Shown: positions 23,459 to 62,018 of the stretch, in pieces
Position numbering within the stretch: position 1 is the first letter of the stretch
Layout: the number at the start of each line of letters is the position of its first letter
Origin: Candidatus Polarisedimenticolia bacterium
Lineage (GTDB): Bacteria; Acidobacteriota; Polarisedimenticolia; Gp22-AA2; AA152
NCBI GenBank assembly: GCA_035764505.1
Contig: DASTZC010000281.1
Coordinates: 326-64,325 of the forward strand
Direction: 5' to 3'
Length of the DNA stretch: 64,000 nucleotides
The notes under the pieces: generated by a model
Told to the model about the DNA's origin: nothing
The model's database searches: none
Seen by the model: only the letters and a program-made list of their open reading frames with translations
Position numbers and translations under genes: made by a program

Positions 23459-23492
23459 AAACCGCCGAACCCTGAAAGAGACGAGGAGCGGA

Positions 23493-29245: not shown

Positions 29246-29262
29246 GAGGGACGGGGAAGGGC

Positions 29263-31486: not shown

Positions 31487-32985
31487 GCATCGGCAGGGTG
31501 GTCCGCAACATCTCAGCCGGCTATGTCGGGGCGGCGGTCAACGGCGCGACGCTGCTGATCCTGACGCCCTTGGTGATCCGCAGCCTCGGCACCCTGGAGT
31601 ATGGCCTCTGGGTGACCGCGACGGCGCTGGGGAGCTACTTCGGCTCCCTCAACGCCGGCAGCGGCGCCGCCGGGGTCAGGTCGGTGGCTTCCGGCGCGGC
31701 GCGGGAGGGCTTCGACCAGGCCAGCCGGGAGCTGGGGTCCATCTTCCGCGTCTACTGCGTCCTGGGAATCCTGGCATGCGTCGGATTGATCGGTCTCGGC
31801 TTCATCACGCTCGACCGGTTCGGCGTTCCCCCGGAGCTGAAGGTCTCCATGCGCTGGCTGATCGCGCTCATCGGGATCAACTTTCTGATCTCCTTTCCCT
31901 TCGGCCTGACCCGCAGTGCGCTGGCCGGGATGCAGTATTTCGGGCTGCTCAACACCGTCGAGGTTGCCACAGCGCTTTTCCGCCTGGCGGCCACCGCGGC
32001 GCTGCTGGCGGCAGGGATGGGGGTCGTCTCGCTCGGGGTGGTGCAGCTGATCGCGTCGGTCGCCGGGCACCTCGCCCGCTGGCGCGCGATCCGCCGCCTG
32101 GCGCCGGAGATTCATCTGACCGGTGGCCCGACCTACCGCAAGCTGGTGCCCCAGGCCTTTCTCTTCTCCGCCCTTTCCTTCGGGTACGAGAGCCTGAGGA
32201 CGCTTTTCGAAAACTCCGATCTGCTGATCCTCGGCCTGCTCGCGGGGCCGCAGGCGGTGGCCCTGTTCGCCGTGGCGGCCACGGTCGCCTCCTTCGTTTC
32301 CAAGGGGCTGCAGCCCGTCTCCAACGTCCTGTTCCCGCTCGCCTCGCGCGCCGATTCCCAGGGAACGGCGCAGGCGCGCCTGCTCGAGGTGGCCACGCGG
32401 GTGAATCTGGCGCTGGCCCTGCCGGTGGTGACGCTCCTGATGGTGGACGGTGGCGCGCTCCTGCGGTTGTGGGCCGGTGAGTCTTTTGCCTCCAGCCTCC
32501 CGATCCTGCGCGCCCTCGCCCTGGCGGCGCTGGTCACGGCGGCCTCGCTGGCACCCACGACGCTGCTGTTCGGAGCCGGACGCGTGGGAGTCCTGCTGGG
32601 GGCGGAATCGTGGCGCTACGCCCTCAACCTCGCGCTTGTGGTGGTGGGATACCGCCTCTATGACTTGCCGGGCGCGGCGGTGGGCACGCTCGCGGCGACG
32701 CTCGGAATCGACGCCTGGCTGGTGCTGCGGCGCTGCTGTCCCTGGGGCGGCGTCGATCCGAAAAGCTTCCTGATCCATTCGGTGGGAGCCCCGCTCCTGA
32801 CCGGGCTCCCGGTGGTCCTCCTGATGGCCGCCTGGAAATCGTGGGCTCCTGATCCTTCTCTGCCTCTCCTGCTGGCCAGGGCCGCGGCGTGCCTCGGGGC
32901 TTTCGCCCTGATGTACGGCGTGAGCGGCACCTTCCGCGAGGAGCGGCGTCTCGTCGTGCGCGCATGGGCGGAGGTGTTCCGATGA
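31483..32985 (+). CDS. wzx: Wzx-type polysaccharide flippase (MOP/PST family)
   Basis: It has about 12-14 TM helices and a Polysacc_synt-like profile. Confidence 0.8.
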   Translation: MSIGRVVRNISAGYVGAAVNGATLLILTPLVIRSLGTLEYGLWVTATALGSYFGSLNAGSGAAGVRSVASGAAREGFDQASRELGSIFRVYCVLGILACVGLIGLGFITLDRFGVPPELKVSMRWLIALIGINFLISFPFGLTRSALAGMQYFGLLNTVEVATALFRLAATAALLAAGMGVVSLGVVQLIASVAGHLARWRAIRRLAPEIHLTGGPTYRKLVPQAFLFSALSFGYESLRTLFENSDLLILGLLAGPQAVALFAVAATVASFVSKGLQPVSNVLFPLASRADSQGTAQARLLEVATRVNLALALPVVTLLMVDGGALLRLWAGESFASSLPILRALALAALVTAASLAPTTLLFGAGRVGVLLGAESWRYALNLALVVVGYRLYDLPGAAVGTLAATLGIDAWLVLRRCCPWGGVDPKSFLIHSVGAPLLTGLPVVLLMAAWKSWAPDPSLPLLLARAAACLGAFALMYGVSGTFREERRLVVRAWAEVFR

Positions 32986-34736
32986 ATCCCGGTTTGGTGT
33001 CGCGAGCCCGCAAGTCTCCGCCTCCATTCGGCGAGGTACCGCTTCGCGAGTGGCTCTTCCCGCTCGGCGTGGCCGCTCTCCTGATGGCCATCGTGTGGAT
33101 TCCCTACTCTCTGGGCTACAGCCTGCAGGACGGCACGCATCGCTTCATGGGGCTGGTGGGCACGGACGCGATCGATGACAACAACGTTTACCTGGGCCTG
33201 ATGCGCCAGTCTGCCGAAGGACGGGTGCTGTTCACCAACAACTTCACGCCGGAGCCGAACCCGCCCGCGCTGTTCAACTTCCTCTACCTTTCGCTCGGCC
33301 GGATCTCGCGCTGGACCGGGATGAGCCTTGATCAGACGCATCGCGCGTTCGGCGCTCTGTCGATTCTGCTGCTCACGCTGACCATCTACGGCTTCATCGC
33401 CACCGCCATCCGTCGCCCTTTCTACCGCCGCTTCGCCCTGGTGCTCGCCTGCTTCGGAGGCGGCTTCCTGTGGCTCTCGCGCATCATCCTGCGGATGACC
33501 GGTGTCGACCTCAAGCCGATCACCGCCTGGCTCGTGGAAGTAAATCTCTTCCACGCGATGCTCGTCTATCCGCATTTTGTCTTCGCCGCCGCGCTGATGA
33601 CCGGCTCGCTCGTCATGTACCTCAAATCGGAGCGGGTGCGGCGCTACATGCCGGCGGCGGCGGCCGGCTGCGTGGCGACGATCCTCGCCGCCAGCCATGC
33701 CTTCGAGGCCGTGGCTTTCATTCCGATCGCCGGCGCCTATCTGGTGCTCGACGCGCTGGGGCTCGGGCGAATGCCGGGGGCCAGCCGCTGGAAGTGCTGC
33801 GCGCTGGTCATCGGGATGCCGGTGGGGATGCTGCTGGTGAATCGCTGGATGCTGATCCTGGAGCCGGCCTGGGGAGACGTGGTGACACGGCTGTCGTTCC
33901 AGACGCCGGAGCCCTTCCGCCTGATCCTCGGCCTGGGGGCCTCTTTCGCCATCTCGGTGCTGACTTTCGAAGGCTTCCTGCGCGTCGACCGCCCATCCGG
34001 AGAGCGCATGGCGAAGGCCTGGGTGCTCATGGTTCTGGTGCTGGCCTATGTACCGTACATCAACTGGCGCTGGCACCTGCTCAACGGCATCCAGATCCCG
34101 CTGTCCATTCTCGCGACCCAGGGGCTGCGGCGCACGGTGTTCCTGCGCATCCAGCGGCGGCGGCGGGCGCTCGGCAAGCGGCGCATTGTGCCGCGCGGCA
34201 TCTGGGCTCCGGCACCGCAGATGGCGGTCATGGCGCTGGTCGGCATCATCTGCTGCCTGAGCGTGGCGAACCTCTTCCTCCATTACAAATACCAGGTGCA
34301 GGACATGAGCTCGCCTACCTACCTCACCCGCGGCGAGCTGTCGGCGATGGACTGGATGAGCCGCAACGTGTCGCTCGATTCGGTGGTCCTCGGCTCCTAC
34401 AAGACCGGCAACTACGTGCCGCGACTGTCGGGACAGCGGGTCTTCCTGGGCGAGGACATGCTCACGCAGGCTTTCGAGATTCGCGCACGGGACGTGGGGG
34501 AGTTCTACTCGACGCATTGGAACGACACGCAGCGCGAGGCGCTCCTCAGGCACTACCAGGTGGGATACGTGGTGTACGGGCCGCCGGAGCGCGAGCTGGG
34601 CTCGTACGATCCGTCCGCCTCCAGCTTCCTGCACCGGATCTACGAGGCCGACGGGGTCGAGATCTTCGCGGTGAAGCAGGAGGGAGAGGGAGGCATGCGC
34701 ACCGCAACCCTTCCGGAAAAGGAGCCTTTGCCTTGA
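32982..34736 (+). CDS. Large polytopic membrane protein, putative GT-C fold glycosyltransferase or polymerase
   Basis: It has more than 12 TM segments. GTDAIDDNNVY in the first extracytoplasmic loop is a DD-type motif, and there is a C-terminal ~200-aa soluble domain. It uses an ATGA overlap. Confidence 0.45.
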   Translation: MNPGLVSRARKSPPPFGEVPLREWLFPLGVAALLMAIVWIPYSLGYSLQDGTHRFMGLVGTDAIDDNNVYLGLMRQSAEGRVLFTNNFTPEPNPPALFNFLYLSLGRISRWTGMSLDQTHRAFGALSILLLTLTIYGFIATAIRRPFYRRFALVLACFGGGFLWLSRIILRMTGVDLKPITAWLVEVNLFHAMLVYPHFVFAAALMTGSLVMYLKSERVRRYMPAAAAGCVATILAASHAFEAVAFIPIAGAYLVLDALGLGRMPGASRWKCCALVIGMPVGMLLVNRWMLILEPAWGDVVTRLSFQTPEPFRLILGLGASFAISVLTFEGFLRVDRPSGERMAKAWVLMVLVLAYVPYINWRWHLLNGIQIPLSILATQGLRRTVFLRIQRRRRALGKRRIVPRGIWAPAPQMAVMALVGIICCLSVANLFLHYKYQVQDMSSPTYLTRGELSAMDWMSRNVSLDSVVLGSYKTGNYVPRLSGQRVFLGEDMLTQAFEIRARDVGEFYSTHWNDTQREALLRHYQVGYVVYGPPERELGSYDPSASSFLHRIYEADGVEIFAVKQEGEGGMRTATLPEKEPLP

Positions 34737-35671
34737 GCCGGATCACCCCTGCCTCGGTCTCGGTCGTCGTCTGCACGCGCAACCGCGCGGGCCTGCTCGA
34801 CGGCTGCCTGGCGCGCCTGGCGATCCTCGACCCGGCGCCGCTGGAGATTCTGGTGGTGGACCAGGGGGACGACGATGCCGCGTCTCAGGTCGTGCTCCGC
34901 CATCGAGACCGCCTGCCCAACCTGCGCCACCTCCCCTCATCGAGTCGCGGCCTGAGCCGCGCGCGGAACCTCGGCATTGCCCAGGCGCACGGTGAGATTC
35001 TCAGCTTCACGGACGATGACTGCCTGGTGCGCAGCGACTGGGTGGCCTCGGTGGCGCGCGCTTTCGACCGCCATCCCGAGATCGCGGCCGTGACCGGCGG
35101 CTCGCTTCCCGACGGGGTGGACGACGCCGATCCGCGCATCCTGGCGGCGGCCACCTGGCATCCGGCGGCGCCCCGCCTCTACCGCAGCTTCGTGGATCCG
35201 GCGGTGGTGGGGGGCGGCTTCAATCTCTCCTTTCGCAAGGAGTGGGCCGAGAGGATCGGGAGGTTCGACGCCGACCTGGGCCCCGGCGCGCGGTTCCGCG
35301 GCGCCGACGACACCGATTTCATCCATCGCATCCTGCATGCCGGAGGGTCAATCCTCTACGACCCCGCCGTCGTGGTAGCCCACCTCCCATGGCGCAACGG
35401 CACCGTCCAGTCGGCGGTGGAATGGGAATATGGCCATGGCATCGCGGTGTGGGCACTGAAGCGGCTGCGGGTGCGCGACTTCTTCCCCGCCCGCGTCGCC
35501 CTGGGCGTGTTCGCTACCCAGGCCCGCCGCGTGGCGGGCGGGATCGTGCGTGGCGACGGCGGTGCCTTGCGCACCGGCTGGTCGTATGTCTCGGGGATGT
35601 GCCGCGGCGCGGCGAGCTGGCTGATGGCTTCTTCTCCCGCGCCCGTCGATCGGGAGGCCGGAAGTGTCTGA
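34733..35671 (+). CDS. GT2 glycosyltransferase
   Basis: VSVVVCTRNR...VVDQGDDD...FTDDDC (DxD) are present. TTGA overlap. Confidence 0.75.
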   Translation: MSRITPASVSVVVCTRNRAGLLDGCLARLAILDPAPLEILVVDQGDDDAASQVVLRHRDRLPNLRHLPSSSRGLSRARNLGIAQAHGEILSFTDDDCLVRSDWVASVARAFDRHPEIAAVTGGSLPDGVDDADPRILAAATWHPAAPRLYRSFVDPAVVGGGFNLSFRKEWAERIGRFDADLGPGARFRGADDTDFIHRILHAGGSILYDPAVVVAHLPWRNGTVQSAVEWEYGHGIAVWALKRLRVRDFFPARVALGVFATQARRVAGGIVRGDGGALRTGWSYVSGMCRGAASWLMASSPAPVDREAGSV

Positions 35672-36458
35672 GCGACGCGGCGTGACGATTCTCATGTACC
35701 ACTGGATCAGCGGCGATCCCGGGCAGCGGCTGCGGCACTGGGGCGTCACGCCGGAGCAGTTCGCGGCGCAAGTGCGCTGGCTGCACGAGGAAGGGTACCG
35801 CACGCTGACCCTGGACCAGGTGGTCCAGATCGTCCGCAACCTGGCGCCCATGCCGGAGCGCGCTGTGGCGCTCACCTTCGATGACGGCTACCGCGATTTC
35901 CTGGAGGGCGCCTCCCAGGTCCTGCTCGATCATGGCTTCACCGCCACCATCTTCCTGGTCGCCGACCGGGTCGGCACCACCAACTCCTGGGATGCGCGCC
36001 ACGGCGATCCGCCCCGCCGCCTCCTCTCCTGGTCGGAGGCGCGGGAGCTGGCGCGGCGCGGCTTCGAGCTCGGCTCTCACACGCGGACGCATCGCATGCT
36101 GCCGACGCTGTCGGATGCCGAGCTGGACGACGAGATCGCCGGCTCGAAAGCCCTCCTTCAGGATCGGCTCGGCATGGCGGTGCGGCATTTCTCCTATCCG
36201 CACGGGGAGCTCGACGGGCGCTGTTTGCGGCGAGTGCGCGCCGCCGGCTACGCCAGCGCCTGCTCCGACCGGCGTGGCGGCAACCGGCCGGGAGTCGATC
36301 CCTTCCTGCTGAAGCGCAGCCTGATCACCTGCCATGAGAGCCGCTGGTCCTTCTCGTTCAAGGCGCGCACCGGCTTCGGCATCCGGGAATGGACGACGAC
36401 CCGGATCTCGCGGCGGCGGATCCCCGGCACGCCCGCGGCTCTCGGAGGGCGGCCATGA
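35664..36458 (+). CDS. Polysaccharide deacetylase (CE4/NodB homology)
   Basis: LTFDDGY...H..H motifs are present. GTG start. Confidence 0.8.
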   Translation: MSERRGVTILMYHWISGDPGQRLRHWGVTPEQFAAQVRWLHEEGYRTLTLDQVVQIVRNLAPMPERAVALTFDDGYRDFLEGASQVLLDHGFTATIFLVADRVGTTNSWDARHGDPPRRLLSWSEARELARRGFELGSHTRTHRMLPTLSDAELDDEIAGSKALLQDRLGMAVRHFSYPHGELDGRCLRRVRAAGYASACSDRRGGNRPGVDPFLLKRSLITCHESRWSFSFKARTGFGIREWTTTRISRRRIPGTPAALGGRP

Positions 36459-37456
36459 GCACCCCGGCGCTCAGCATCGTCGTTCCGACCTACAACCGCC
36501 GCGAGCTTCTCTCCCGGACGCTGCCGGCTCTGCTTCAGCGGGCTCGTGAAGAGGGGCCGGCCGAGGTAATCGTCGTGGTGGACGGATCCGCCGACGGGAC
36601 TCTCGAGATCCTCGCGGGATACGTTCATGATCCCGGTCTTCAAGTGATTTTCCAGGAAAATCGCGGATTGGCCGCGGCGCGCAACCGCGGCACGGCGGCC
36701 GCCGCCGCCGAGGCGGTGCTCTTCCTGGACGACGACATGCTGCTCGACGAGGGCGCCTTGGCGCAGCACCGCGCGGCGCATGCCCCCGAAGGGGAGCGGG
36801 TGGTCTTTGGATCCCTGGGCCTGGCGCCCGGCCCCCGCAGGTCCTTCCTGAAGGAAGGGGTCGAGGTCTGGGGAGAACAGGTGCGCGAGCGGCTGTCGGC
36901 ACCGGGCTATCGCTTCCGCTTCGACGATTGCCATTTCGGCCATGCCTCGGTATCGCGCTCCCTGCTGCGCTCCCGCGGTGGCTTCGACGAGACCTACGTG
37001 AAGTTCGGCAACGAAGACTACGACCTGGGCTGGCGACTGATCCAGGCGAGCGCGGAGATGCGCTTTCTCCCAGAGGCCGTGGCCCGCCAGATCTACGACA
37101 AGGATATGCCTCGCTGGCTGCGGGACTGCCAGTGCGTCGGCGAGGCCGATCAGGTCCTGGCCGCCAAGCATCCCCTCCTGAGGAGCCACCTGCGCCTGTC
37201 GGCGCTGCCGGAGCATCCGCTGCGCCGCCTGGCGCGTCGCAGCGGCCTGTCCGCCGCGGATCCCCTGGCGCCCCTGTGGGCGCTGCTCGAGTCGTCATTG
37301 TCGCGCCTCGAGAGAAGGGGCGCGCGCGGCCGCTGGCTGGGGATGGCCCAGTCCCTGGTGGGGGAGCGCCGTTACTGGATGGGAGTCCGGAGCCGCTCCG
37401 GAGAGATGCCCAGCGTCGCCTCTTCCCGCCAGGCGCGCAGCCGGAGCGTCGCATGA
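36455..37456 (+). CDS. GT2 glycosyltransferase
   Basis: LSIVVPTYNR...VVVDGSADGT...LDDDM are present. ATGA overlap. The longer ORF from 36389 is rejected. Confidence 0.75.
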   Translation: MSTPALSIVVPTYNRRELLSRTLPALLQRAREEGPAEVIVVVDGSADGTLEILAGYVHDPGLQVIFQENRGLAAARNRGTAAAAAEAVLFLDDDMLLDEGALAQHRAAHAPEGERVVFGSLGLAPGPRRSFLKEGVEVWGEQVRERLSAPGYRFRFDDCHFGHASVSRSLLRSRGGFDETYVKFGNEDYDLGWRLIQASAEMRFLPEAVARQIYDKDMPRWLRDCQCVGEADQVLAAKHPLLRSHLRLSALPEHPLRRLARRSGLSAADPLAPLWALLESSLSRLERRGARGRWLGMAQSLVGERRYWMGVRSRSGEMPSVASSRQARSRSVA

Positions 37457-38370
37457 GCCGCGCGCGCATCTCGGTGCTCATCGCCACGGCCGACCGCCCC
37501 GAGCTGATGGAGGATTGCCTGGCGCACGTGGCCCGGGCCGCCACGAGTGCCGACGAGATCATCGTCCTGGATCAGAGCCGCGATGCCGTGTCGATTCTGC
37601 GGCTGCCGGATGACACGGGCCCGGTGCTGCGCCATCTGCGCTGTCCGCGGCGCGGCAAGAGCGCGGCGCTGAACGTCGGCGTGGCGGAGGCGTGCGGCTC
37701 CCTGCTGGCCTTCACCGACGACGACTGCCGGGTTGCCCCCGACTGGCTCGAGGTGATGCACCATGCCTTCGCGCGATCCGGGGCAGGGGTGGCGCTGACC
37801 GGACGAGTGCTCGCCGGAGAGGCCGAGCCGGGAGCGGTGCGCGCCCCGTCTCTGCGCGAGGATTCCGAGGCGCGCGAGTACCGCAGCCCCCTCTACCGCG
37901 ACGTGCTTTTCGGCAACAACATGGCGCTGCCGGCCGAGGCGCTGCGCCGGGTCGGCAGGTTCGACGAATCGCTGGGACCTGGGACCCGCTTCCCCGCGGC
38001 CGAGGACAACGACCTCGGCTATCGCCTCTTGAGGGCCGGGATCCCGATCCACTACCTGCCGGGAATGACGGTGCGGCACCGATCCTGGAGGGGCGCGTCG
38101 CAGCAGGTCGACCTGTTCCGGGCCTACGGGGTGGGGCAGGGGGCGTTCTACGGCAAGCATGCCCGCGCCGGCGACTGGCACATGCTCGGCCGGATGGCCA
38201 AGAACCTGTGGGATGGCTGCCGCGACGCGGGCGGCGCGGCCATTCTCGGGCGCGCTTATGACTTCCGGGCTTCGATCTCATTCTCGAAAGGACTGCTGCA
38301 AGGCTTTTTCGGAGCGGCCGTGCGCGGGGGGAACGGCCGGACCGCGGCGCTGCAGACGGAGAAGCCGTGA
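37453..38370 (+). CDS. GT2 glycosyltransferase
   Basis: ISVLIATADRP...FTDDDCRV are present. ATGA overlap. Confidence 0.75.
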   Translation: MSRARISVLIATADRPELMEDCLAHVARAATSADEIIVLDQSRDAVSILRLPDDTGPVLRHLRCPRRGKSAALNVGVAEACGSLLAFTDDDCRVAPDWLEVMHHAFARSGAGVALTGRVLAGEAEPGAVRAPSLREDSEAREYRSPLYRDVLFGNNMALPAEALRRVGRFDESLGPGTRFPAAEDNDLGYRLLRAGIPIHYLPGMTVRHRSWRGASQQVDLFRAYGVGQGAFYGKHARAGDWHMLGRMAKNLWDGCRDAGGAAILGRAYDFRASISFSKGLLQGFFGAAVRGGNGRTAALQTEKP

Positions 38371-39170
38371 GCCCGGAGGGAGTCGAGGCGGAGGCCTCGA
38401 CTCGAGCGCGCGAGGCGCGCCGCGTGGTGCGGCGAATCGCGCATCCCAAGATCTGGCAGTACGACTACTTGATGCTGCGGGAAATCGTCGCGGGTCTGCG
38501 GCGCCAGGCCGGGGCGCTGAACGGCGGCGGGAATCTGGAGATTCTGGACGTGGGATGCAAATACCAGCCGTACCGGGAGCTGTTCGAGGCGCGGGCGGCG
38601 AGCTACGTGGGCGTCGATCTGGCCCCTTTCCACGGGGTCGGAGTGCGCGGCGACGCCCTGGCGCTCCCTTTTCGCTCCGATGCCTTCGACCTGGTGGTCT
38701 GCACCCAGGCTTTCTACCTGATGACCGATTTCCGCCGCGCCTTGTCGGAGCTGGTGCGGGTGACCCGCTCGGGCGGCAGGATTCTCCTGACCACGATCGG
38801 CATCTGGCCCTATCCGCCGGCGGTGAGGCTGCACCGCTGGAGCCGGCGCGAGCTGGAGGAGGCGCTGGCGGAGTTCGGGGAGACGCGCGTGGAAGAGAGC
38901 GGCGGATTGCTGCAGCTGGTGCCGCAGCTGGCCAACGCTCTGCTCGCCATGGGAGTGGAAGGGCCGCTGGTGCAGCGGCACCCGCGCGGCGGACGGCTGC
39001 TGGCGCTGCCTCTGAAGGGGCTCTACCTGTCGGTGAACGTCCTCGGGATGGCCGCGTCGCGGATGATCCGCGCCGCTGCCCGTGCGGGGCTCGGGACGGC
39101 GCGCTCGATGCAGGATGTCGACACGCACCTCGCCATCAACTATCTGGCCGTGCTGCGGCCGCGGAAGTGA
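38367..39170 (+). CDS. Class I SAM-dependent methyltransferase
   Basis: LEILDVGCKYQPY (motif I) ... GGRILL is present. GTGA overlap. Confidence 0.7.
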   Translation: MSPEGVEAEASTRAREARRVVRRIAHPKIWQYDYLMLREIVAGLRRQAGALNGGGNLEILDVGCKYQPYRELFEARAASYVGVDLAPFHGVGVRGDALALPFRSDAFDLVVCTQAFYLMTDFRRALSELVRVTRSGGRILLTTIGIWPYPPAVRLHRWSRRELEEALAEFGETRVEESGGLLQLVPQLANALLAMGVEGPLVQRHPRGGRLLALPLKGLYLSVNVLGMAASRMIRAAARAGLGTARSMQDVDTHLAINYLAVLRPRK

Positions 39171-39181
39171 GGGACTGAGAA

Positions 39182-40282: not shown

Positions 40283-40292
40283 GGTCGTCGTG

Positions 40293-47302: not shown

Positions 47303-47336
47303 TGCGTCGTCTTCGAGCGCGAGGGAGTCGAACTTC

Positions 47337-51750: not shown

Positions 51751-51754
51751 GGGG

Positions 51755-53995
51755 TTGAGAGGAGAGAGGGAAATGAGGGAAGAGACGCAGCAGCAACAGA
51801 CCTCCGAGCTCGAGTTCGATATCCAGGCCTATCTCCGCCTGATCGCAGCCAACAAGTGGATCATCATCTCCTTCACGATCGTGCTCGGCGTCGCCGTGGG
51901 GGTCTGGTCGTCCCTGCAGCCCAAGCTGTACGAGGCCCAGAGCAGCGTCCTCGCGGGGCGCGAATTGCCCCGCCTGCTCAGCTTCGACGACGTCCTGCCG
52001 GGCGAGCAGATCCGCGACCTCAACTACGTCCAGACGCAGGTGGCGATCCTCGGGAGCCGCAGCTTCCTGCAGAAAGCGGTGAAGCGCCTCATCCGGGAGG
52101 GCTTCTACGGCAAGGTGGACGAGAAGGACGTCGAGAACAAGTCGCGCAAGCTCGCCAAGATGATGGAGCCGCGTATCAACGTCATGCCGGCCGGGCAGTC
52201 GCGCGTCCTCAAGATCACCGTGCGCGGCGGCTTCCCCGACCGGGTGGCGCGCATCGCCGATGCCATCGCCGAAGAATACGTCGACAGCAACCTGGAGAAG
52301 AAGCAGCAGATGGCGGACCAGGGGGTGACCTGGCTGGAATCAAGGCTGGCCGAGCAGAAGGCGAAGCTGGGCGAGGCCGAGTCGGCGCTGCAGACCTTCA
52401 AGGAGCAGGAGAACATCATGGCCTCCGACGAGGAGGATCCCTTCTCGACTCTGGCGCTGGGACGGCTGAATGAAGAGTACCTGACCACCCGCTTCCAGCG
52501 CATGGAACGCGAGCAGCGCATCGAGGCGCTCAAGCGCGCCACCAAGGGCGGCAGCTCCTCTTCTTCGGGGGCGAAGAGCGCCACCAACGCTCTCGACGCG
52601 GAGGTTCAGAACGCGGTCAAGGAGCAGATGAAGAAGGAATATGTCGACGGCCAAATCCAGCTGCGCGAGCTGTCGCAGCGCTACGGCCCGGACCATCCCG
52701 ACATCCTGTCCCTCAAGCTCAAGGTGGATCGGATCGGCGCGGAGCTGAAGACCATGGATGTCCCGGACATGGGGACGCCGAGTGCCGACCCGTCGCTGAA
52801 GGGTGCCTCCCTGGCCGAGCTGACCTCCGACTACAACATCCTCAAGAACAAGGAAGACGCCCTCGCCAAGACCCTCGAGTCCCACAAGGCGGCAGTGCGC
52901 AACGTCGGCCGCGTGGGGGTGCGCTACGGCTTCCTGAAGCAGGAGGTCGAGATCAATCGCACGACCTACAACGGGCTGCTGCAGCGCCTCAACGAGACGA
53001 AGCTGTCGGGCGAGATCAAGAACCCGGCCGTGCTGGTCCTGGACAAGGCCGAGGTCCCGACCATACCGGTGGAGCCCAACGTAGGGCGCAACATCATGAT
53101 GGCCCTGGTTCTCGGGCCGGTGTTCTCCATCGGCTTCGTCCTGCTGCGCGAGCACCTGGACAGCCGGATGAAGGGGCCGGATGACGCGGGCCGGACGCTG
53201 GGCCTGCCGGTCCTGTGCGTGGTCCCCGAGCTGCCGGGCGGGCCGGGCGAGAAGGTGAACGGCGTCATGCCGCTGCTGACGGTGAACGAGCCGCGCTCGC
53301 ACGTGGCGGAGATGTACCGAAATTTGAGAACCTCGATCCTGTTCTCCTCGGGGAAGCAGAACATCAAGACGGTCCTGGTCACCAGCGCGGTGGCGGGTGA
53401 AGGGAAGTCGACCACGGCGGCCAACCTCGCCGCGGTCATGGCCCAGAGCGGACGCAAGGTCCTGCTGATCGACGCCGATCTGCGGCGCCCCGCCCTGCAC
53501 CGCTATTTCAACCGCGAGCAGGGACGCGGCATCGTCCGTCTCCTGACCACCGACTGCACGCTGGAGGAGGCGATCCAGACCTCGAGCGTGGAAAACCTGG
53601 ATCTGCTGCTGTGCGTCGGCATCCCGCCCAATCCTTCCGAGCTGCTGGGCTCGGAGCGCGCGCGCATGGTCATGGAGCAGCTGAAGGCACGCTACGACCT
53701 GATCGTCGTCGACTCGCCGGTCCTGATCTCGGTGACCGACTCGGTGATCCTGGCGGCGCGCTCGGACGCGGTGCTGATGGTGCATCGTCCCGGGGCGGCG
53801 GAGCGTACCCTCGTGCGTCGGGCGCGGGAAAGGCTGGACGAGGTCCAGGCCAACGTCATCGGGCTGGTCCTGAACAAGGTGAATCTCAAGAAGCAGGGCT
53901 ACCGGTATCCGGAATACGGCTACTACGGCTACGAGGGCTATCCCTCGCAGGACGCCGCGGCCGAGAAACCCAAGGGAAAGCAGAAAAAGGCGTGA
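51755..53995 (+). CDS. wzc: Polysaccharide co-polymerase/BY-kinase (Wzc/EpsB-like tyrosine autokinase)
   Basis: It has an N-terminal TM segment, a Wzz periplasmic coiled coil, a second TM segment and Walker A GEGKSTTAANLA. The C-terminus carries the Tyr cluster YRYPEYGYYGYEGY. Confidence 0.85.
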   Translation: MRGEREMREETQQQQTSELEFDIQAYLRLIAANKWIIISFTIVLGVAVGVWSSLQPKLYEAQSSVLAGRELPRLLSFDDVLPGEQIRDLNYVQTQVAILGSRSFLQKAVKRLIREGFYGKVDEKDVENKSRKLAKMMEPRINVMPAGQSRVLKITVRGGFPDRVARIADAIAEEYVDSNLEKKQQMADQGVTWLESRLAEQKAKLGEAESALQTFKEQENIMASDEEDPFSTLALGRLNEEYLTTRFQRMEREQRIEALKRATKGGSSSSSGAKSATNALDAEVQNAVKEQMKKEYVDGQIQLRELSQRYGPDHPDILSLKLKVDRIGAELKTMDVPDMGTPSADPSLKGASLAELTSDYNILKNKEDALAKTLESHKAAVRNVGRVGVRYGFLKQEVEINRTTYNGLLQRLNETKLSGEIKNPAVLVLDKAEVPTIPVEPNVGRNIMMALVLGPVFSIGFVLLREHLDSRMKGPDDAGRTLGLPVLCVVPELPGGPGEKVNGVMPLLTVNEPRSHVAEMYRNLRTSILFSSGKQNIKTVLVTSAVAGEGKSTTAANLAAVMAQSGRKVLLIDADLRRPALHRYFNREQGRGIVRLLTTDCTLEEAIQTSSVENLDLLLCVGIPPNPSELLGSERARMVMEQLKARYDLIVVDSPVLISVTDSVILAARSDAVLMVHRPGAAERTLVRRARERLDEVQANVIGLVLNKVNLKKQGYRYPEYGYYGYEGYPSQDAAAEKPKGKQKKA

Positions 53996-55008
53996 AGCTC
54001 ATCATCCAGATCCCCTGCTTGAACGAGGAGACCACCCTCCCGATCACTCTCGCGGGGCTGCCGCGCAGCCTCCCCGGGGTGGATCGCATCGAGCTTCTGG
54101 TCATCGACGACGGGAGCACCGACCGCACCGCGGAGGTGGCCCGGCGCCTGGGCGTGCATCACGTCGTGGTGCTGCCGACCCACCAGGGGCTGGCACGCGC
54201 CTTCACCCAGGGACTGGACGCGGCCCTCAAGCTCGGCGCCGACATCATCGTGAACACCGATGCCGACAACCAGTACGACGCTCGCGATCTGGAGCGGCTC
54301 ATCACCCCCATCCTCGAGGGCACGGCGGATCTCGTCGTGGGCGATCGGCGGGTCCAGACGCTCGGGCACTTCTCACGGGTCAAGCGGATGCTGCACCGCC
54401 TCGGGGACCACGTGATGCGGCGCCTTTCGGGGCTGGAGCTGCTCGACTCGACCAGCGGCTACCGGGCCTTCAGCCGGGAGGCGGCGCTGCGGCTGAATGT
54501 CTTCTCGCGCTTCACCTATACCCTGGAGACGCTGATTCAGGCCGGCAAGAAGCATCTGGCGGTGGCGCACGTGCCGGTAGGTGTCAACAAACAGCTGCGC
54601 GAATCGCGGCTGTTCCCGAACCTGTGGTTCTACATCAAGCGGTCGGTGAGCACGATGGTGCGGATCTATGCGCTCTACGAGCCGCTGAAGGTCTTTGCCT
54701 ACGCCGGCCTGACGCTGCTGGCCGGCGGCGGGCTGCTGATCGCCCGGTTCTTCTACTTCTATTTCACCGCCGAGGGGTCCAGCGGCCACACCCAGTCGTT
54801 CCTGGCGGGGACGGCGCTCTCCATCCTCGGGGCGGTGACCATCCTCTTCGGCGTCGTCAGCGACCTGATGGCGGCCAACCGGCAGCTGGTCGAGGACGTG
54901 CAGTACCGGCTGCGCAAGATGGAGCTGGAGAATCTGGAGAGCGACTCGGAGCACGCCGCCTCGCGACGGAAGACTTCCTCCTGGGGCGGCGGAGGGAAGC
55001 CGTCATGA
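53992..55008 (+). CDS. GT2 polyprenyl-phosphate sugar synthase (GtrB/ArnC/DPM1-like) with two C-terminal TM helices
   Basis: IIQIPCLNEE...VIDDGSTD...DADNQY are present, with C-terminal TM segments. GTGA overlap. Confidence 0.75.
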   Translation: MKLIIQIPCLNEETTLPITLAGLPRSLPGVDRIELLVIDDGSTDRTAEVARRLGVHHVVVLPTHQGLARAFTQGLDAALKLGADIIVNTDADNQYDARDLERLITPILEGTADLVVGDRRVQTLGHFSRVKRMLHRLGDHVMRRLSGLELLDSTSGYRAFSREAALRLNVFSRFTYTLETLIQAGKKHLAVAHVPVGVNKQLRESRLFPNLWFYIKRSVSTMVRIYALYEPLKVFAYAGLTLLAGGGLLIARFFYFYFTAEGSSGHTQSFLAGTALSILGAVTILFGVVSDLMAANRQLVEDVQYRLRKMELENLESDSEHAASRRKTSSWGGGGKPS

Positions 55009-56135
55009 CGATGCGGCGCGTCCTCGTCACGGGAGGAGCCGGATTCATCGGCTCGCACCTGGTCGCCGCGCTGAGAGCGCGCGGGCACCGCGTGCGCGTC
55101 CTGGATGTCCTCGATCCGCAGGTGCACGGCCGCGACGGCCGGCACCGAGGCACGCCCGAGGACGTCGAGATGCTGCGCGGCGACATCCTGGACGAGGAGC
55201 TGCTCGGCCGTGCTCTGGAGGGCATCGAGGTGCTGTTTCATCAGGCCGCCAGCGTGGGCGTCGGCCAATCGATGTACGAGGCGGCCGCTTATACGCGGGT
55301 GAACAGCCTGGGGACGGCGCTGCTCATGCAGCGCCTGGCGGCGCCGGGCTCGAAGGTGGAGAAGGTCGTCGTCGCCTCGTCGATGTCGCTCTACGGCGAG
55401 GGATACTACTCCTGTCCCTCCTGCGGCCCGGTCCATCCGCAGCCGCGCAGCCGGCGCAGCCTGTCGCCGGGCGAATGGGAGCCGGCCTGCCCGCGCTGCA
55501 AGGCGCCGCTGGAGCCTCTACCCACGGCGGAGACGGTGCCACCTGCGCCCACATCGATCTACGCCATCACCAAGCGCTGCCAGGAGGAGACGGTGCTGGT
55601 GATGGGGCGCGCCTACGGCATTCCGGCCGTCGCCTTGCGCTACTTCAATGTCTATGGCCCCGGCCAGGCGCTGTCGAACCCTTACACCGGCGTGGCGGCG
55701 ATTTTCGCCAGCCGCCTGCTCAATGGGGCGGCCCCGATCCTCTTCGAGGACGGCATGCAGAGCCGCGATTTCATCCATGTCTCCGATATCGTGCGCGCCA
55801 ACCTGCTGGCGATGGAGAAGCCGCAGGCGGACGGCGAGGTGTTCAACGTGGGGACCGGCCGGCGCACGACCTTGCTGGAGATGGCCTCCTCGCTGGCGGC
55901 CAAGCTGCGCCCTCAGGGAGACGCGGCGCCCCAGGTGGCGGGGACCTTCCGGGAAGGCGACATCCGACATTGCTTCGCGGACGTGACGAAGATCGGCAAG
56001 GCCCTCGGATTCGAGGCGGCAATGCCCTTGGAGCGCGGCTACGAGGACCTGGCCGAGTGGGCCAGGACCCAGAAGCCGCAGGATTTCACCCGCGAGGCGG
56101 TCGCGGAGCTCGAGGCGCGCGGGCTGGTCTCCTGA
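55005..56135 (+). CDS. NAD-dependent epimerase/dehydratase (extended SDR) with inserted Cys4 zinc-ribbon
   Basis: GGAGFIGSHL, YxxxK and YFNVYGP are present. A ~40-aa insertion YYSCPSCGPV...PACPRCK interrupts the Rossmann core. Confidence 0.8.
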   Translation: MTMRRVLVTGGAGFIGSHLVAALRARGHRVRVLDVLDPQVHGRDGRHRGTPEDVEMLRGDILDEELLGRALEGIEVLFHQAASVGVGQSMYEAAAYTRVNSLGTALLMQRLAAPGSKVEKVVVASSMSLYGEGYYSCPSCGPVHPQPRSRRSLSPGEWEPACPRCKAPLEPLPTAETVPPAPTSIYAITKRCQEETVLVMGRAYGIPAVALRYFNVYGPGQALSNPYTGVAAIFASRLLNGAAPILFEDGMQSRDFIHVSDIVRANLLAMEKPQADGEVFNVGTGRRTTLLEMASSLAAKLRPQGDAAPQVAGTFREGDIRHCFADVTKIGKALGFEAAMPLERGYEDLAEWARTQKPQDFTREAVAELEARGLVS

Positions 56136-56182
56136 CCCGCGCCGCCCGGGAATCTCATTCACCGAAAGGAGTGCGCAGTTCC

Positions 56183-57673
56183 ATGTTCAAGGCTCTCGTG
56201 ACCAACCCACCCTGGCCAGGGGACGGCTACGGCGCCCGGTCCTCCGTGCGCTGGCCGCACAAACGCAAGGACAAGAAGCTCGAATTCCCCATTTTCCTCG
56301 CCTACACCGTCGCGCTCCTGAAAGAGAAGGGGGTGGAGACCGTCTTCCTGGACGGCGTCTGCGACGAGCTGGACATCGAGCGCTACGCCGCCGAGGTGGC
56401 GCGCATCGCGCCCGACTTCATCGCCATGGAGTGCTCGACTCCCTCCATCGATCACGACCTCCAGTCGATCCGACGAATCAAGGAGCTGCGGCCGCAGACC
56501 TTCGTGGCGCTGATGGGCTCGCACGCGACCTACTATCACCAGGAGCTGCTGCGGGAGCACCCGGAGATCGGCGCCATCATCCGCGGCGAGTTCGAGGTCA
56601 CGGTGCGCGAGGTGGCCCTGGCGCTCCGCGCCGGCTCGAATCTGGAGAAAGTCGCCGGAGTGACCTGGCGCGGCGAAGGCGGCATCCGCGTCAATCCGGA
56701 TCGCCCCTTCGAGGGTGATCTCGACCGCTGGCCCTATCCCGATCGCGAATCGATCCTGATGGAGAAGTACCAGACGGCGCAGTACCAGGGGAAAAAGGGG
56801 ACCTTCATGCTCTCCAGCCGCGGCTGCCCCTATCGCTGCACCTTCTGCCTGTGGCCGGGGACGATGGTGGGGCGCGACTTCCGTGCCCGCGACCCGGAGT
56901 CGGTGGTCGACGAGATGGAGTACCTCGTGCGCCAGCACGGCGTCGACGACATCTACTTCGACGACGACACCATGACCATCGATCGGGAGCGGCTCCTGCG
57001 GATCTGCCGGCTGATCCAGGAGCGCGACCTGAAAGTCCACTGGATCTCCATGGGGCGCGTCGACACGGTGGACGATGAGCTGCTCAGTGAGATGCGCAAG
57101 GCCGGGTGCGACAACCTGTACCTCGGGGTCGAGTCGGGATCGCAGGAGATCCTCAATCGCCTGAAGAAAGGGATCACGCTCGATCAGGTCGTGAAGGCCT
57201 TCCAGGCGGCGCGGCGCGCCGGCATCAAGACCCAGGCCTTCTTCATGCTGGGCGGACCGGGAGAGACGAAGGAGACCTTGAAGGAGACCATCGACTTCGC
57301 CGTGAAGCTGGATCCCGACAACGCTCAGTTCGCCGCCGCGGTGCCCTATCCCGGCACCGAGATGTACGAAGAGTCGCTGCGCAAGGGCTATCTGCGGGCC
57401 ACCAGCTGGGAGGACTACGCCGCCAAGGACATCGTCCTGGAGACCGAGACCCTGTCGCGCCTGGACCTCGAGAAGGCCCGGCTCGAAGCCTACCGGCGCT
57501 TCTACCTGCGCCCTCGCTTCATCATGCGCACGGCGTCACGGCTGACCAGCACGCGCGAGTTCCGGCGCGTCTGGCGGGGCACCGTCTCCATCGTGAGTCG
57601 GCTGCTCTACTTCTCCAAGAACGTCCGCCGCAAGACGCGCTCCACGACGCGCGGCGCCCTGGAATCGGCGTGA
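56183..57673 (+). CDS. B12-binding domain radical SAM protein (class B), paralog of 47337..48818
   Basis: The same architecture, with SSRGCPYRCTFC, is present. The two share VRWPH/DRWPH and other blocks. Confidence 0.8.
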   Translation: MFKALVTNPPWPGDGYGARSSVRWPHKRKDKKLEFPIFLAYTVALLKEKGVETVFLDGVCDELDIERYAAEVARIAPDFIAMECSTPSIDHDLQSIRRIKELRPQTFVALMGSHATYYHQELLREHPEIGAIIRGEFEVTVREVALALRAGSNLEKVAGVTWRGEGGIRVNPDRPFEGDLDRWPYPDRESILMEKYQTAQYQGKKGTFMLSSRGCPYRCTFCLWPGTMVGRDFRARDPESVVDEMEYLVRQHGVDDIYFDDDTMTIDRERLLRICRLIQERDLKVHWISMGRVDTVDDELLSEMRKAGCDNLYLGVESGSQEILNRLKKGITLDQVVKAFQAARRAGIKTQAFFMLGGPGETKETLKETIDFAVKLDPDNAQFAAAVPYPGTEMYEESLRKGYLRATSWEDYAAKDIVLETETLSRLDLEKARLEAYRRFYLRPRFIMRTASRLTSTREFRRVWRGTVSIVSRLLYFSKNVRRKTRSTTRGALESA

Positions 57674-57674
57674 G

Positions 57675-58826
57675 ATGACCGTTTGCTACTGGGGGACCTA
57701 CGACCGCGATTATCCGCGCAACCGCATTCTCATCCAGGGGCTGCGCGCCAACCAGGTCGTGGTCCGCGAGATGCACGCGCCGCTGTGGGGATCCACCGCC
57801 GAAAAGGTGCGGCGCGCGCGCGGCCGTTGGCTGGGCCCCGGCCTGGTATTGCGGGCGGCCTGGGCCTACCTGCGCCTCGGCGCCCGGTTCCTTGCATCAC
57901 CCCGCCCTGATTTCCTGTTCGTCGGCTATTCGGGGCATTTCGACGTCTTTCCCGCCTGGGTCCTCAGCCGCGTCCGCCGGGTCCCCCTGGTCTTCGACGC
58001 GTTCCTGTCGCTGTACGACTCTCTGGTCCTCGACCGCGGCGCGCTGGCGCCGCGCGGTCTCAAGGCGCGGGCCCTCGCTTGGGTGGACCGCTGGTCCTGC
58101 CGCCTGGCGGACCGGGTCCTCCTCGACACCAGCGCGCATCGTGAGTTCTTCTGCCGGCAGTTCGGCGTGCCTCCGGAAAAATTCTGGATTCTGCCGATCG
58201 GGGCCGACGACACCGTGTTCACCCCCGCCGCGGAACCTCCCGGCAACGGACATCAACCGCCGACGGTGCTGCACTTCGGGCGCTACATTCCGCTGCACGG
58301 TATGGAAACGGTGGTGCGGGCCGCGGCGCTGCTGGAGGAATCCGGCGAGCCCTGCCGGTTTCTGCTGGTGGGAGACGGAGAGGAGCGGCCGCGCATCGAG
58401 GCTCTGGCGCACGAGCTCGGGCTGCGCAGCGTGGAGTTCGTCGGGAGCCAGTCCCCGGAGATGCTGGCCGAGACGGTACGGCGCTCGGATCTCTGCCTCG
58501 GAATCTTCGGCACCACCGGGAAAGCCGCCCGCGTCGTGCCCAACAAGGTTTACGAGGCGATGGCTTCCGGCAAGCCGATCCTGACCGCCGATTCGCCGGC
58601 GGCGCGCGAGATGCTCACCGACGGGGTCGACTGCCTGCTGTGCGAGAGCGGCAATCCGCAGAGCCTTGCAGACGCCATCCGGCGGGCCCGCTCCGACCTC
58701 GAGCTGGCGAATCGACTGGGGAGCAATGCGCGGCGCCGCTTCGAGCTGTGCGCCGCTCCCGCCGTGATCGGACAGACCCTGGCGCGAAACCTGCAGGTCC
58801 TGGGAGGGGCGCATGCCGCTTCTTGA
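57675..58826 (+). CDS. GT4 (GT-B) glycosyltransferase
   Basis: EAMASGKPIL in the C-terminal Glycos_transf_1 domain. Confidence 0.7.
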   Translation: MTVCYWGTYDRDYPRNRILIQGLRANQVVVREMHAPLWGSTAEKVRRARGRWLGPGLVLRAAWAYLRLGARFLASPRPDFLFVGYSGHFDVFPAWVLSRVRRVPLVFDAFLSLYDSLVLDRGALAPRGLKARALAWVDRWSCRLADRVLLDTSAHREFFCRQFGVPPEKFWILPIGADDTVFTPAAEPPGNGHQPPTVLHFGRYIPLHGMETVVRAAALLEESGEPCRFLLVGDGEERPRIEALAHELGLRSVEFVGSQSPEMLAETVRRSDLCLGIFGTTGKAARVVPNKVYEAMASGKPILTADSPAAREMLTDGVDCLLCESGNPQSLADAIRRARSDLELANRLGSNARRRFELCAAPAVIGQTLARNLQVLGGAHAAS

Positions 58827-60255
58827 TCCGGGGGCGGCGCGCGAGAAGCGCTGGGTCGTGGGGCTCCTGATACTGGCCCTGATGCTGCGCCTCGGCTTCG
58901 TGTTGATGCAGCCGTCGGGATTCTATTTCTTCGATTCGGTGGAGTTCGATCGGGCCGCCCGCACGCTGCTGGATCTGGGCCGCTTCCACCACTCCTACGA
59001 GCACCTGCCCGGATATCCGATCTTCATGGCGGGAGTCTACGCGCTGTTCGGCCGCGAGGTGCTGCCGCTGCGGCTGGTGCAGGCGCTGCTTTCCACCGGC
59101 CTTTGCGCGCTGATCTGGCTGCTCGGCCGGCGGCTGTTCGGCCGCCGAGCGGGGCTGTTGGCGCTGGCCCTGTGCGTTTTCTTCCCGGTACAGATCGTCC
59201 TGCCCGGGATCGAGTACCCGCTGGTCGTGGGGAGCCTGGCGATATGGGGGGGGCTGACGCTGCAGGCGCTGCGCTCCGGGGAGCCGCGGCGCGACTTCAT
59301 CTGCCTGGCCGGCGCGGGCGTCCTGATCGGAGCAGCCTGCCTGACGTTCGAGGCCGGATGGGCCGCGGCCGTGTTCATGGGTTTCTGGCTGCTGATGGAA
59401 GGCGGTACCCTGAAGCGACGGGCCGGAGCCTCAGCGGTGTTCACGGCGGCGGTGCTGGTCACCGCGATTCCCTTCCTGGTGGGCATGGCCGAGTCGGACG
59501 ACTTCCGGCCGGTGCTCAAGCGGGCGGGGGTCCATCTGCCGGCCGCCCCCGACAGCGACGCGCCCCTTTCGCAGGGAAACGGCACGAACCTGGTGGAGGC
59601 CAAGCTCACGGCGATGGCCGAACGACCCGGGTTCACTTTGAAGCACATCGCTTCCGAGTTCGTGCGCTTCTGGAACCCCTATCCCGACCGGCTTTGGGCG
59701 GCGAGCGCCGGATTTCGCGAGAAAGCGCACCGCGAGGACGCGCGCATGCGCCTCCAGAATCCTCTCGTCACCAATCGGAAGAAGCTTCTCTATGCCGCGG
59801 GCTTCTCCGTCCTGCTCGCGGGAGCGGCGCTCGGCGCTTTCATGGCCCGCCGCAAGGTGGTCGGCTGGGGCTTCCTGGCAGGGTGGCCGGTTGCCCTGGG
59901 TTTGGCTTACGCTCCTTTCTTCACCCAGATGCGTTATCGCATTCCCGCCGATCCGGCTTTTTTCCTGCTGGCCGCCTATGCGGCGGATCAACTCTTGGAA
60001 GGAGAGCTCGTGAACGCCCTACGATCCCTGCCCGCCGCCCTCTGGGAAGGCTGGAAGCGGGTGGCCCTGAAAATCGCCCTGGTCCAGACGTTCCTCCTCC
60101 TGGCCCTGCTGTTCGGCCTGGTCCTGGGCCCCCTCTCCCTGTTGATGAAGCTGTTCCGCAAGGATCCCATGGAAGGGGTCGTGCAGGGGTCGTCCTTCTG
60201 GGTGGTCCGGGAGAAGACGAGCGAGGGCCTGCAAGAATGTCTCAGACAGTTCTGA
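58813..60255 (+). CDS. GT-C fold membrane glycosyltransferase (PMT_2/ArnT-like)
   Basis: FFDSVEFDRAA in the first loop is followed by HLPGYPIFMAGVYALFG, typical of PMT_2, with about 11 TM segments. Confidence 0.6.
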   Translation: MPLLDPGAAREKRWVVGLLILALMLRLGFVLMQPSGFYFFDSVEFDRAARTLLDLGRFHHSYEHLPGYPIFMAGVYALFGREVLPLRLVQALLSTGLCALIWLLGRRLFGRRAGLLALALCVFFPVQIVLPGIEYPLVVGSLAIWGGLTLQALRSGEPRRDFICLAGAGVLIGAACLTFEAGWAAAVFMGFWLLMEGGTLKRRAGASAVFTAAVLVTAIPFLVGMAESDDFRPVLKRAGVHLPAAPDSDAPLSQGNGTNLVEAKLTAMAERPGFTLKHIASEFVRFWNPYPDRLWAASAGFREKAHREDARMRLQNPLVTNRKKLLYAAGFSVLLAGAALGAFMARRKVVGWGFLAGWPVALGLAYAPFFTQMRYRIPADPAFFLLAAYAADQLLEGELVNALRSLPAALWEGWKRVALKIALVQTFLLLALLFGLVLGPLSLLMKLFRKDPMEGVVQGSSFWVVREKTSEGLQECLRQF

Positions 60256-60268
60256 TTGGATGGAGTGC

Positions 60269-62005: not shown

Positions 62006-62018
62006 GGGGAAGGGCAGG

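Follow-up and report, generated by a model that had tools for sequence, protein, structure and literature searches.

The DNA considered here is a stretch of 64,000 nucleotides (64 kb, called the window throughout) from an uncultivated member of the Polarisedimenticolia (Acidobacteriota), taken from contig DASTZC010000281.1 of assembly GCA_035764505.1. A complete Wzx/Wzy-dependent exopolysaccharide (EPS) locus starts at about 27.1 kb and continues to the window end. This locus encodes five large polytopic proteins, g6, g14, g15, g16 and g26, all of which are glycosyltransferases (GTs) of the GT-C type and none of which is a Wzy polymerase or a ligase. It also encodes g22, which by its sequence is a polyprenyl-phosphate-sugar synthase of the GtrB/DPM1/ArnC type. 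Since five GT-C enzymes and a lipid-phosphate-sugar synthase are encoded, the polymer is probably assembled in part outside the cytoplasm. A phosphoglycosyltransferase (PGT), Wzx, Wzy, a polysaccharide co-polymerase (PCP, Wzc) and an outer-membrane polysaccharide export protein (OPX, Wza) are all present, with Wzy assigned via full-length homologs of g29. The genes that carry the argument are listed here (TM, transmembrane; EL1, first external loop).

27105..27707, + strand: Wza-like outer-membrane polysaccharide export protein, first gene of the locus (Poly_export 89 bits, plus SLBB)
31483..32985, + strand: g5, Wzx flippase of the MOP superfamily (Polysacc_synt 47.8 and Polysacc_synt_3 44.9 bits; multiple TM helices)
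32982..34736, + strand: g6, GT-C glycosyltransferase of an unnamed family with STT3/AglB-like architecture (start overlaps the wzx stop codon)
41207..42691, + strand: g14, GT-C glycosyltransferase, MptA/B- and ArnT-like (invariant E43 opens the first EL1 helix)
42688..44361, + strand: g15, GT-C glycosyltransferase of the PMT_2 family (PMT_2 and PMT above cutoff)
44358..46355, + strand: g16, GT-C glycosyltransferase, PMT_2-like, with a D214-E215 motif (family matches)
50014..51750, + strand: g20, sugar-1-phosphate nucleotidyltransferase fused to a priming polyprenyl-phosphate PGT (Bac_transf 227.9, NTP_transferase 77 and TIGR03025 287 bits)
51773..53995, + strand: g21, Wzc-type polysaccharide co-polymerase/tyrosine kinase (Wzz, GNVR, AAA_31)
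53992..55008, + strand: g22, polyprenyl-phosphate glycosyltransferase, predicted GtrB/DPM1/ArnC type (GT2 domain and two C-terminal TM helices)
55005..56135, + strand: g23, NAD-dependent sugar epimerase/dehydratase, coupled to g22 (Epimerase 177.7 bits; GalE-like below cutoff)
58813..60255, + strand: g26, GT-C glycosyltransferase of the PMT_2 family (PMT_2 36.9 bits; D41-x-x-E44-F-D46 in EL1)
63567..64000, + strand, running off the window: g29, Wzy_C-family polymerase/ligase, partial, first 144 residues (homologs)

The GC content of the window is around 68%, and third-position GC indicates + strand coding throughout, from about 27.1 kb to the window end. Thirty genes were counted in this part, with starts picked relative to upstream stops. 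Start and stop codons overlap at 18 of the 29 junctions, and only two gaps are longer than 50 nt (113 nt before g2 and 389 nt before g28), so the locus of about 37 kb is co-directional and mostly translationally coupled. A first-pass annotation, made from the letters and their open reading frames (ORFs), had placed large polytopic proteins at 32982, 41207, 42688, 44358 and 58813, and these gene models, coordinates and topologies hold. In the five genes, third-position GC (0.8-0.95) tracks the frame of each on the + strand, and each start is an ATG that overlaps the preceding stop (ATGA type). The start of g22 at 53992 is a GTG that likewise overlaps the preceding stop. Full-length identical public proteins exist for g6 (32982-34736; P0001, VFW45_18360, 584 aa), g16 (44358-46355; P0095, VFW45_18410, 665 aa) and g26 (58813-60255; 480 aa, carrying PF13231), and no exact match among public proteins was found for g27 and g28. 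When 26-64 kb was scanned for promoters and terminators, candidates were no more numerous than expected from shuffled sequence, and every one of them lay inside coding sequence. Outside the locus and its near-upstream genes, the window holds housekeeping genes, and no further GT-C gene was found elsewhere in the 64 kb.

The arrangement is shared by relatives. All window proteins were compared by tblastn with fetched loci, for which flanks of 10 kb were taken. The order g4-g27 is shared by five related loci from metagenome-assembled genomes (MAGs) or metagenomes at 50-85% identity. Three of these (L001-L003) cover g4/g5-g21, including g6, g14, g15 and g16 at 54-64% identity, and two (L004-L005) cover g19-g27, where g22 is about 70% and g26 about 50% identical. 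No single fetched locus contains all five GT-C genes, because the flanks were limited to 10 kb. In a more distant locus, where the g6 homolog is 37% identical, both the overlap of wzx with g6 and the downstream order persist (L089). Distant g6 homologs again adjoin other GT-C genes and a short GT2.

On an unrelated metagenome contig (L090, 8001-17330), several large membrane proteins are encoded in a row. The first is a distant g6 homolog (32% identity over 30% of g6), two others are YfhO-like GT-C proteins, and a 257-aa GT2 follows the array. In L088 (703-4538), a distant g6 homolog is flanked by a CDP-diglyceride synthase-family gene and a gene for a GT87 (PimE-like) GT-C enzyme, so that this branch of the g6 family may serve the synthesis of glycolipids and not of EPS.

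Family, fold and catalytic loop of the five membrane proteins

The GT-C nature of the five proteins, proposed in the first-pass annotation, is supported for each by hidden Markov model (HMM) or structure comparison, the latter with AlphaFold2 (AF2) models for g6 and g14. The Pfam gathering cutoffs are 26.1 bits for PMT_2 (PF13231) and 22.7 bits for PMT (PF02366). Both are passed by g15 (30.6 and 25.9 bits), whose orthologs also carry PMT_2, and g26 passes the PMT_2 cutoff with 36.9 bits. On its own, g16 stays below threshold (GT22 18.5 bits, PMT_2 16.5 bits), but PMT_2 is matched by 12 of 23 aligned members of its family (best 8.7e-9). In addition, the g16 family profile finds STT3A in the PDB (E 1.7e-4), and in NCBIfam g16 matches the LA_3751/3752 putative GT (1.5e-8). 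A PF13231 search thus recovers g15 and g26 directly and g16 through its family, and finds neither g6 nor g14.

For g14, no Pfam match of its own was obtained. PF26314 (MptA_B_family) is precomputed on 27 of the 30 orthologs listed (54-94% identity), some marked weak, while a direct Pfam scan gave none and returned for g14 and its family weak PMT, GT87 and DUF2142 matches alone. Nothing in Pfam (E <=0.1) or NCBIfam matches g6, and the STT3 model (PF02516) is likewise unmatched. The g6 family profile gave a single, marginal PDB match (3vu0, E 0.08). In structure comparison, the figures for the g6 model against known GT-C enzymes were 17.6 for AftA, 17.0 each for AglB, STT3B and ALG12, 16.7 for PglB and 16.3 for ArnT. 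By Foldseek, the best-ranked structures are STT3, AglB and DPY19 (E 2.6e-9, TM ~0.53), with ArnT and the Aft enzymes behind them, and the overall fold of g6, including an AglB-like C-terminal globular domain, agrees with STT3/AglB/PglB. The label PMT/ArnT-like, given earlier to all five, therefore fits g14, g15, g16 and g26, whereas g6 is nearest to STT3/AglB/DPY19, among which are enzymes with diphosphate-linked oligosaccharide donors. In a profile alignment, the WWDYG motif is absent from g6, and a conserved SYxTGNY stands opposite the WWDYGNW of AglB. The C-terminus of g6 also resembles that of DUF6541 (E 0.004). A search of the C-terminal domains for known carbohydrate-binding modules (CBMs) gave no match. 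Pairwise similarity among the five GT-Cs is undetectable (phmmer <5 bits), and they are therefore anciently distinct families rather than recent duplicates.

All five proteins are polytopic by their hydropathy peaks, and the AF2 models of g6 and g14 contain around 12-13 membrane helices. In both models, TM1 is followed by two short juxtamembrane helices and then TM2. These EL1 helices comprise residues 61-78 and 100-112 in g6 and 41-54 and 75-88 in g14, and the conserved acids D65/D66 of g6 and E43 of g14 sit at the N-terminus of the first of them. Among 21 g6 sequences, reaching down to 25% identity, D65 is present in at least 90% and D66 in 100%, and E43 is invariant among 19 g14 sequences. 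In g16, D214 is invariant and E215 is kept in at least 90% of 23 sequences, directly past TM helix 186-210. Three orthologs compared with g15 retain D60, D67, E72 and E94, and D95 is R in one of them. In g26, D41-S-V-E44-F-D46 is present, with D41 and D46 retained and E44 replaced by D in two orthologs (three sequences compared). Of the first-loop acidic motifs named earlier, the DE of the 44358 protein is thus conserved and the DxxEFD of the 58813 protein is present, whereas the ED of the 42688 protein is not fully kept.

Apart from g16, the GT-Cs have short basic N-terminal tails; in g16 a very basic segment lies ahead of TM helix 186-210. Topology was assigned via the positive-inside rule. 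Because basic segments precede the helix in question, the loop after it is predicted to be periplasmic, so the catalytic first loop would face the periplasm, in an N-in orientation.

Residues 1-185 of g16 (44358-44915) form an N-terminal extension of about 185 aa with around four TM helices, which is found in g16 orthologs only; remoter PMT_2 homologs are 507-557 aa long. The extension carries the conserved motifs GRFDTL and GLEESLxYRLRGL and has no family match. A fused GtrA-like flippase was considered for it and rejected, as no GtrA match was found.

Donor supply and the role of the GT-C enzymes

The product of 53992..55008 had been described as a GtrB/DPM1-like GT2 with C-terminal TM helices, and this is confirmed. 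PF00535 matches residues 7-165 with 84 bits, the sequence shows DDGSTD and TDAD (DxD), and TM helices lie at about 232-258 and 267-296. The nearest solved relatives in the PDB are the Dol-P-Man synthase of Pyrococcus furiosus (5mlz, 5.3e-10) and ArnC (3e-6). In NCBIfam, AglJ (2e-30), PpgS (2e-19) and Dol-P-hexose transferase (6e-15) match best, none of them reaching its cutoff. Since these scores are far under the equivalog cutoffs, the sugar of g22 cannot be named. The coupled epimerase/dehydratase g23 may make the nucleotide-sugar substrate of g22.

The cytoplasmic side of the pathway is also well provided, with five soluble GT2 enzymes (g7, g9, g10, g13, g17) and three of GT4 (g19, g25, g28), eight cytoplasmic GTs in all. 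In the proposed mechanism, g20 would prime a lipid-diphosphate-linked repeat unit in the cytoplasm. As many as eight GT2/GT4 enzymes would lengthen this unit, and deacetylase, methyltransferase, radical-SAM, carbamoyltransferase and kinase activities would tailor it. Wzx (g5) would flip the unit, the Wzy_C protein (g29) would polymerise it and export would proceed via Wzc/Wza. In parallel, at the cytoplasmic face, g22 would charge polyprenyl phosphate with a sugar taken from a nucleotide sugar, for which g23 is a possible source. A flippase would turn this lipid-monophosphate sugar over, and it would become the GT-C donor. The acceptor of the five GT-Cs would be the flipped repeat unit or the polymer as it grows, to which they would attach single branches at five positions or, stepwise, a short side chain as in mycobacterial mannan and arabinan. 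The logic of synthase, flippase and GT-C has been established experimentally in other bacteria (PMC11127046). Periplasmic GT-C glycosylation of the flipped EPS unit or polymer with a lipid-phosphate sugar made by g22 is the best explanation of the locus, and we give it a probability of about 0.6. We infer the donor, the acceptor, the order of the steps and the choice of the locus EPS as acceptor.

Several points weigh against this explanation. The eight cytoplasmic GTs and the PGT already permit a large repeat unit. The acceptor need not be the EPS of the locus, because GT-Cs of the PMT_2 type also glycosylate proteins and lipid A. No GtrA/SMR-type gene, small 4-TM gene or second MOP/MATE gene was found in 27.1-64 kb, where Wzx is the sole flippase-type gene; without a lipid-sugar flippase, one of the three canonical components is missing from the locus. 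One synthase for five GT-Cs implies a single shared donor or donors encoded elsewhere, and an equivalog-level assignment was not reached for g22 (AglJ 106 vs 325 bits). In addition, g6 is closest to STT3/AglB, which use diphosphate-linked donors, and may itself use such a donor. Finally, the host organisms are uncultivated and known here from their genes alone.

Among the alternatives, the two that survive best are each unlikely. In the first, g6 is an STT3/AglB-derived enzyme that transfers the Wzx-flipped polyprenyl-diphosphate unit or polymer en bloc onto a protein, lipid anchor or glycan, and the other four GT-Cs act as proposed above. The Foldseek ranking, with STT3, AglB and DPY19 first, agrees with this, as does the overlap of the g6 start with the wzx stop, which persists at 37% identity. 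However, the WWDYG motif that defines oligosaccharyltransferases (OSTs) is replaced in g6 by a conserved SYxTG, Pfam STT3 is unmatched, the C-terminal match is marginal by sequence, and other homologs lie beside GT87 or YfhO genes, without Wzx. A related and equally long-odds idea is that g6 founds an undescribed bacterial STT3/AglB branch that has lost the sequon-binding WWDYG, is coupled to Wzx and may have the flipped polyprenyl-diphosphate EPS unit as donor or specialised acceptor. If true, g6 would be an oligosaccharyltransferase-like enzyme recruited to EPS assembly and, with four other GT-C families, the EPS would be largely assembled in the periplasm.

In the second, the GT-Cs and g22 are merely co-transcribed with the EPS genes and glycosylate other periplasmic targets, by protein O-glycosylation of the PMT type or modification of lipid A or the lipopolysaccharide (LPS) core of the ArnT/Rgt type. 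The family description of PMT_2 spans ArnT-like lipid A modifiers and protein O-mannosyltransferases, the acceptor is not readable from sequence and the C-terminal domains yielded no carbohydrate-binding module. What makes this improbable is that the five genes are interleaved with and translationally coupled to EPS assembly genes, in an order kept to about 50% identity and partly at 37%. Genes placed in this way usually encode enzymes that act on the product of their locus, as in streptococcal rhamnopolysaccharide and O-antigen loci (PMC11127046).

The first-pass annotation had itself named Wzy, O-antigen ligase or DUF2079-type membership as the finding that would speak against GT-C enzymes. 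This did not occur, and the true Wzy_C gene is a separate one, at 63567. Its ORF is multi-TM and has 12 homologs by exhaustive phmmer (best 61% identity, E 1.4e-40); Wzy_C is matched in 10 of 10 full-length homologs scanned, at 46-73 bits vs a cutoff of 31.7. As this gene completes the pathway, none of the five proteins is needed as polymerase. Between 27 and 63.5 kb, Pfam matches no Wzy, which had made g6 or g14 candidates for it; their candidacy was rejected on the GT-C fold of both and the gene at 63567. That some of the five are Wzy, O-antigen ligase, SEDS-like or non-catalytic membrane proteins mistaken for GT-C enzymes is very improbable: although g6 and g14 have no Pfam match of their own and Wzy is often undetectable by HMM, a separate Wzy_C gene is present, the first-loop acids are invariant or nearly so, and the fold comparisons of g6 and g14 contradict it. 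Periplasmic glycosylation of the EPS by the GT-Cs remains the preferred explanation.

Other genes in and near the locus

The remaining genes of the locus are as follows.

near the locus head, + strand: outer-membrane protein, weakly EpsL-like (Pfam/NCBIfam scans)
29083..29781, + strand: g2, NusG paralog (NusG 66.6 bits in the N-terminal domain, plus KOW)
29808-30470, + strand: g3, 220 aa, one C-terminal hydrophobic helix (no family match)
30467-31486, + strand: g4, APH-type kinase coupled to g3 (Pfam)
34733..38370, + strand: g7 GT2, g8 polysaccharide deacetylase, g9 GT2 and g10 GT2 (Pfam; no TM helices)
38367..41210, + strand: g11 SAM methyltransferase, g12 radical SAM/SPASM and g13 GT2 (Pfam)
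46352..50017, + strand: g17 GT2, g18 B12-binding radical SAM and g19 GT4 (Pfam; NCBIfam HpnJ-like)
56183..58826, + strand: g24 B12-binding radical SAM and g25 GT4 (Pfam)
60260..63579, + strand: g27 NodU-like carbamoyltransferase and g28 GT4 (NCBIfam)

The Wza-like gene comes after recG and a low-GC gap (26414-27104). By analogy with RfaH and UpxY, g2 is probably an operon-specific antiterminator for the long transcription unit. The g3 protein is kept at 46-53% identity in two further loci (L009 and L010), and g4 may phosphorylate a sugar or the polymer. The fusion protein g20 (578 aa) is kept in L001-L005, and its N-terminal part includes a hexapeptide-repeat domain and is mannose-1-P guanylyltransferase-like (1.4e-44). 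Three radical-SAM enzymes are encoded on the + strand, one of the SPASM type (39182-40282) and two B12-binding and HpnJ/BchE-like (47337-48818 and 56183-57673). They are 80-86% identical in relatives, the maximum for the locus, and suggest unusual C-methylation or other radical chemistry on sugars. The 389-nt gap between g27 and g28 (62006-62394) is the sole long non-coding stretch within the locus. Because the genes beyond g27 are different in a further relative (L006), the distal end (g28 and g29/Wzy) may vary as a module or be transcribed separately.

Upstream of the locus, additional candidates for donor supply are found. A UbiA-family gene (21298-22209, + strand), about 6 kb upstream of wza, matches the NCBIfam decaprenyl-phosphate phosphoribosyltransferase model (294 vs a cutoff of 234 bits) and is referred to here as PPPRS-like. 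It is followed by a DUF362 gene (21298-23458 for both, + strand), and the pair is present in 49 of 80 metagenome loci at 45-81% identity. In these 80 loci, the PPPRS-like gene adjoins the EPS locus solely in two close relatives. As a stable partner of the EPS locus it was therefore rejected; it mostly pairs with DUF362 and is a side observation, because adjacency to the EPS locus is limited to close relatives. No DprE1/E2 or phosphatase partner for it was seen within the window. Divergent from it lies a soluble AglJ-like GT2 of 244 aa (20466-21200, - strand), which matches AglJ (4e-33), Dol-P-hexose transferase and PpgS in NCBIfam, all below cutoff, and is kept in L009 and L010. Judged by these matches, it is a second candidate polyprenyl-P-sugar synthase. 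The PPPRS-like gene and this GT2 could be additional donor sources, so that g22, annotated at first as a dedicated donor synthase, is confirmed in its type but is perhaps not the sole supplier.

Between the PPPRS/DUF362 pair and recG, an EamA/DMT-family transporter is encoded (23349-24383, + strand). The lipid-sugar flippases ArnE/ArnF belong to the same superfamily as EamA/DMT transporters, and by this analogy the transporter is a possible candidate for the flippase that the EPS locus does not encode.

Relation to known systems

Three-component systems comparable to the one proposed here are GtrA/GtrB/GtrC of Salmonella and Shigella O antigens, streptococcal GacI/GacL and SccN/SccM, and a pentofuranose system of Citrobacter (PMC11127046). 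They share with this locus a GT2-type synthase with C-terminal TM helices, which makes a polyprenyl-P-sugar at the cytoplasmic face (predicted here), GT-C action on a flipped glycan (proposed here), and genes in or next to the glycan locus. They differ in that five unrelated GT-Cs accompany one synthase here, no dedicated flippase gene is in the locus, and the host is a Wzc/Wza EPS pathway in Acidobacteriota that is known from sequence alone.

Mycobacterial arabinogalactan and lipoarabinomannan (LAM) are made by the enzymes of the aftA-embC-embA-embB-aftB-ubiA region and by MptA/MptB/MptC with Ppm1. The use of one donor by several GT-Cs has precedents in mycobacterial arabinan and mannan and in the Rhizobium Rgt enzymes. 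The aftA-embCAB-aftB-ubiA region of Mycobacterium tuberculosis has a GT-C count similar to the five found here. Mycobacterial assembly is also summarised in PMC11127046. As in mycobacteria, several distinct GT-Cs, one lipid-monophosphate donor and a branched glycan completed outside the cytoplasm are proposed here, a comparable number of GT-Cs lies with a donor synthase in one chromosomal region, and the g14 family is annotated as MptA_B_family. In contrast, orthology is unsupported beyond the weak MptA_B matches, the host is diderm, the backbone is made via Wzx/Wzy rather than by an ABC-type or sequential route, and the PPPRS-like gene is not stably linked.

The targets of ArnC/ArnT and of Rhizobium RgtE with RgtA-D are lipid A or core, and these systems lie outside EPS operons. 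Genes for a formyltransferase, a deformylase and ArnE/F are lacking here. With STT3/AglB/PglB, g6 shares a 13-TM-type architecture, an acidic pair in the first loop and the AglB-resembling C-terminal globular domain, and it differs from them in having SYxTG for WWDYG, no Pfam STT3 match, and a polysaccharide rather than a protein-glycosylation context.

The components and their logic are thus known. What is unusual is that five distinct, conserved GT-C families are interleaved in one Wzx/Wzy EPS operon, and that one of the five is an unnamed STT3-like family without WWDYG. The first-pass remark that five such enzymes in one locus are unusual therefore stands for a Wzx/Wzy EPS operon, but the number is not unprecedented, given the multi-GT-C array of L090 and the M. 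tuberculosis region.

A literature search on the EPS of this lineage found nothing. As the organisms are uncultivated, the practical impact of the locus is limited. The locus gives functional context to two poorly annotated families, that of g6, which has no Pfam or NCBIfam model, and that of g16, which is inconsistently annotated, and it provides a bioinformatic marker set for finding similar loci. In textbook Wzx/Wzy EPS synthesis, nearly all glycosidic bonds are formed in the cytoplasm, and periplasmic additions by GT-Cs are usually single decorations. Five distinct GT-Cs kept across the lineage suggest that lipid-linked donors, used outside the cytoplasm, account for a large share of the EPS structure. 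EPS synthesis in Gram-negative bacteria would thereby be linked to the way in which mycobacterial cell walls are assembled.

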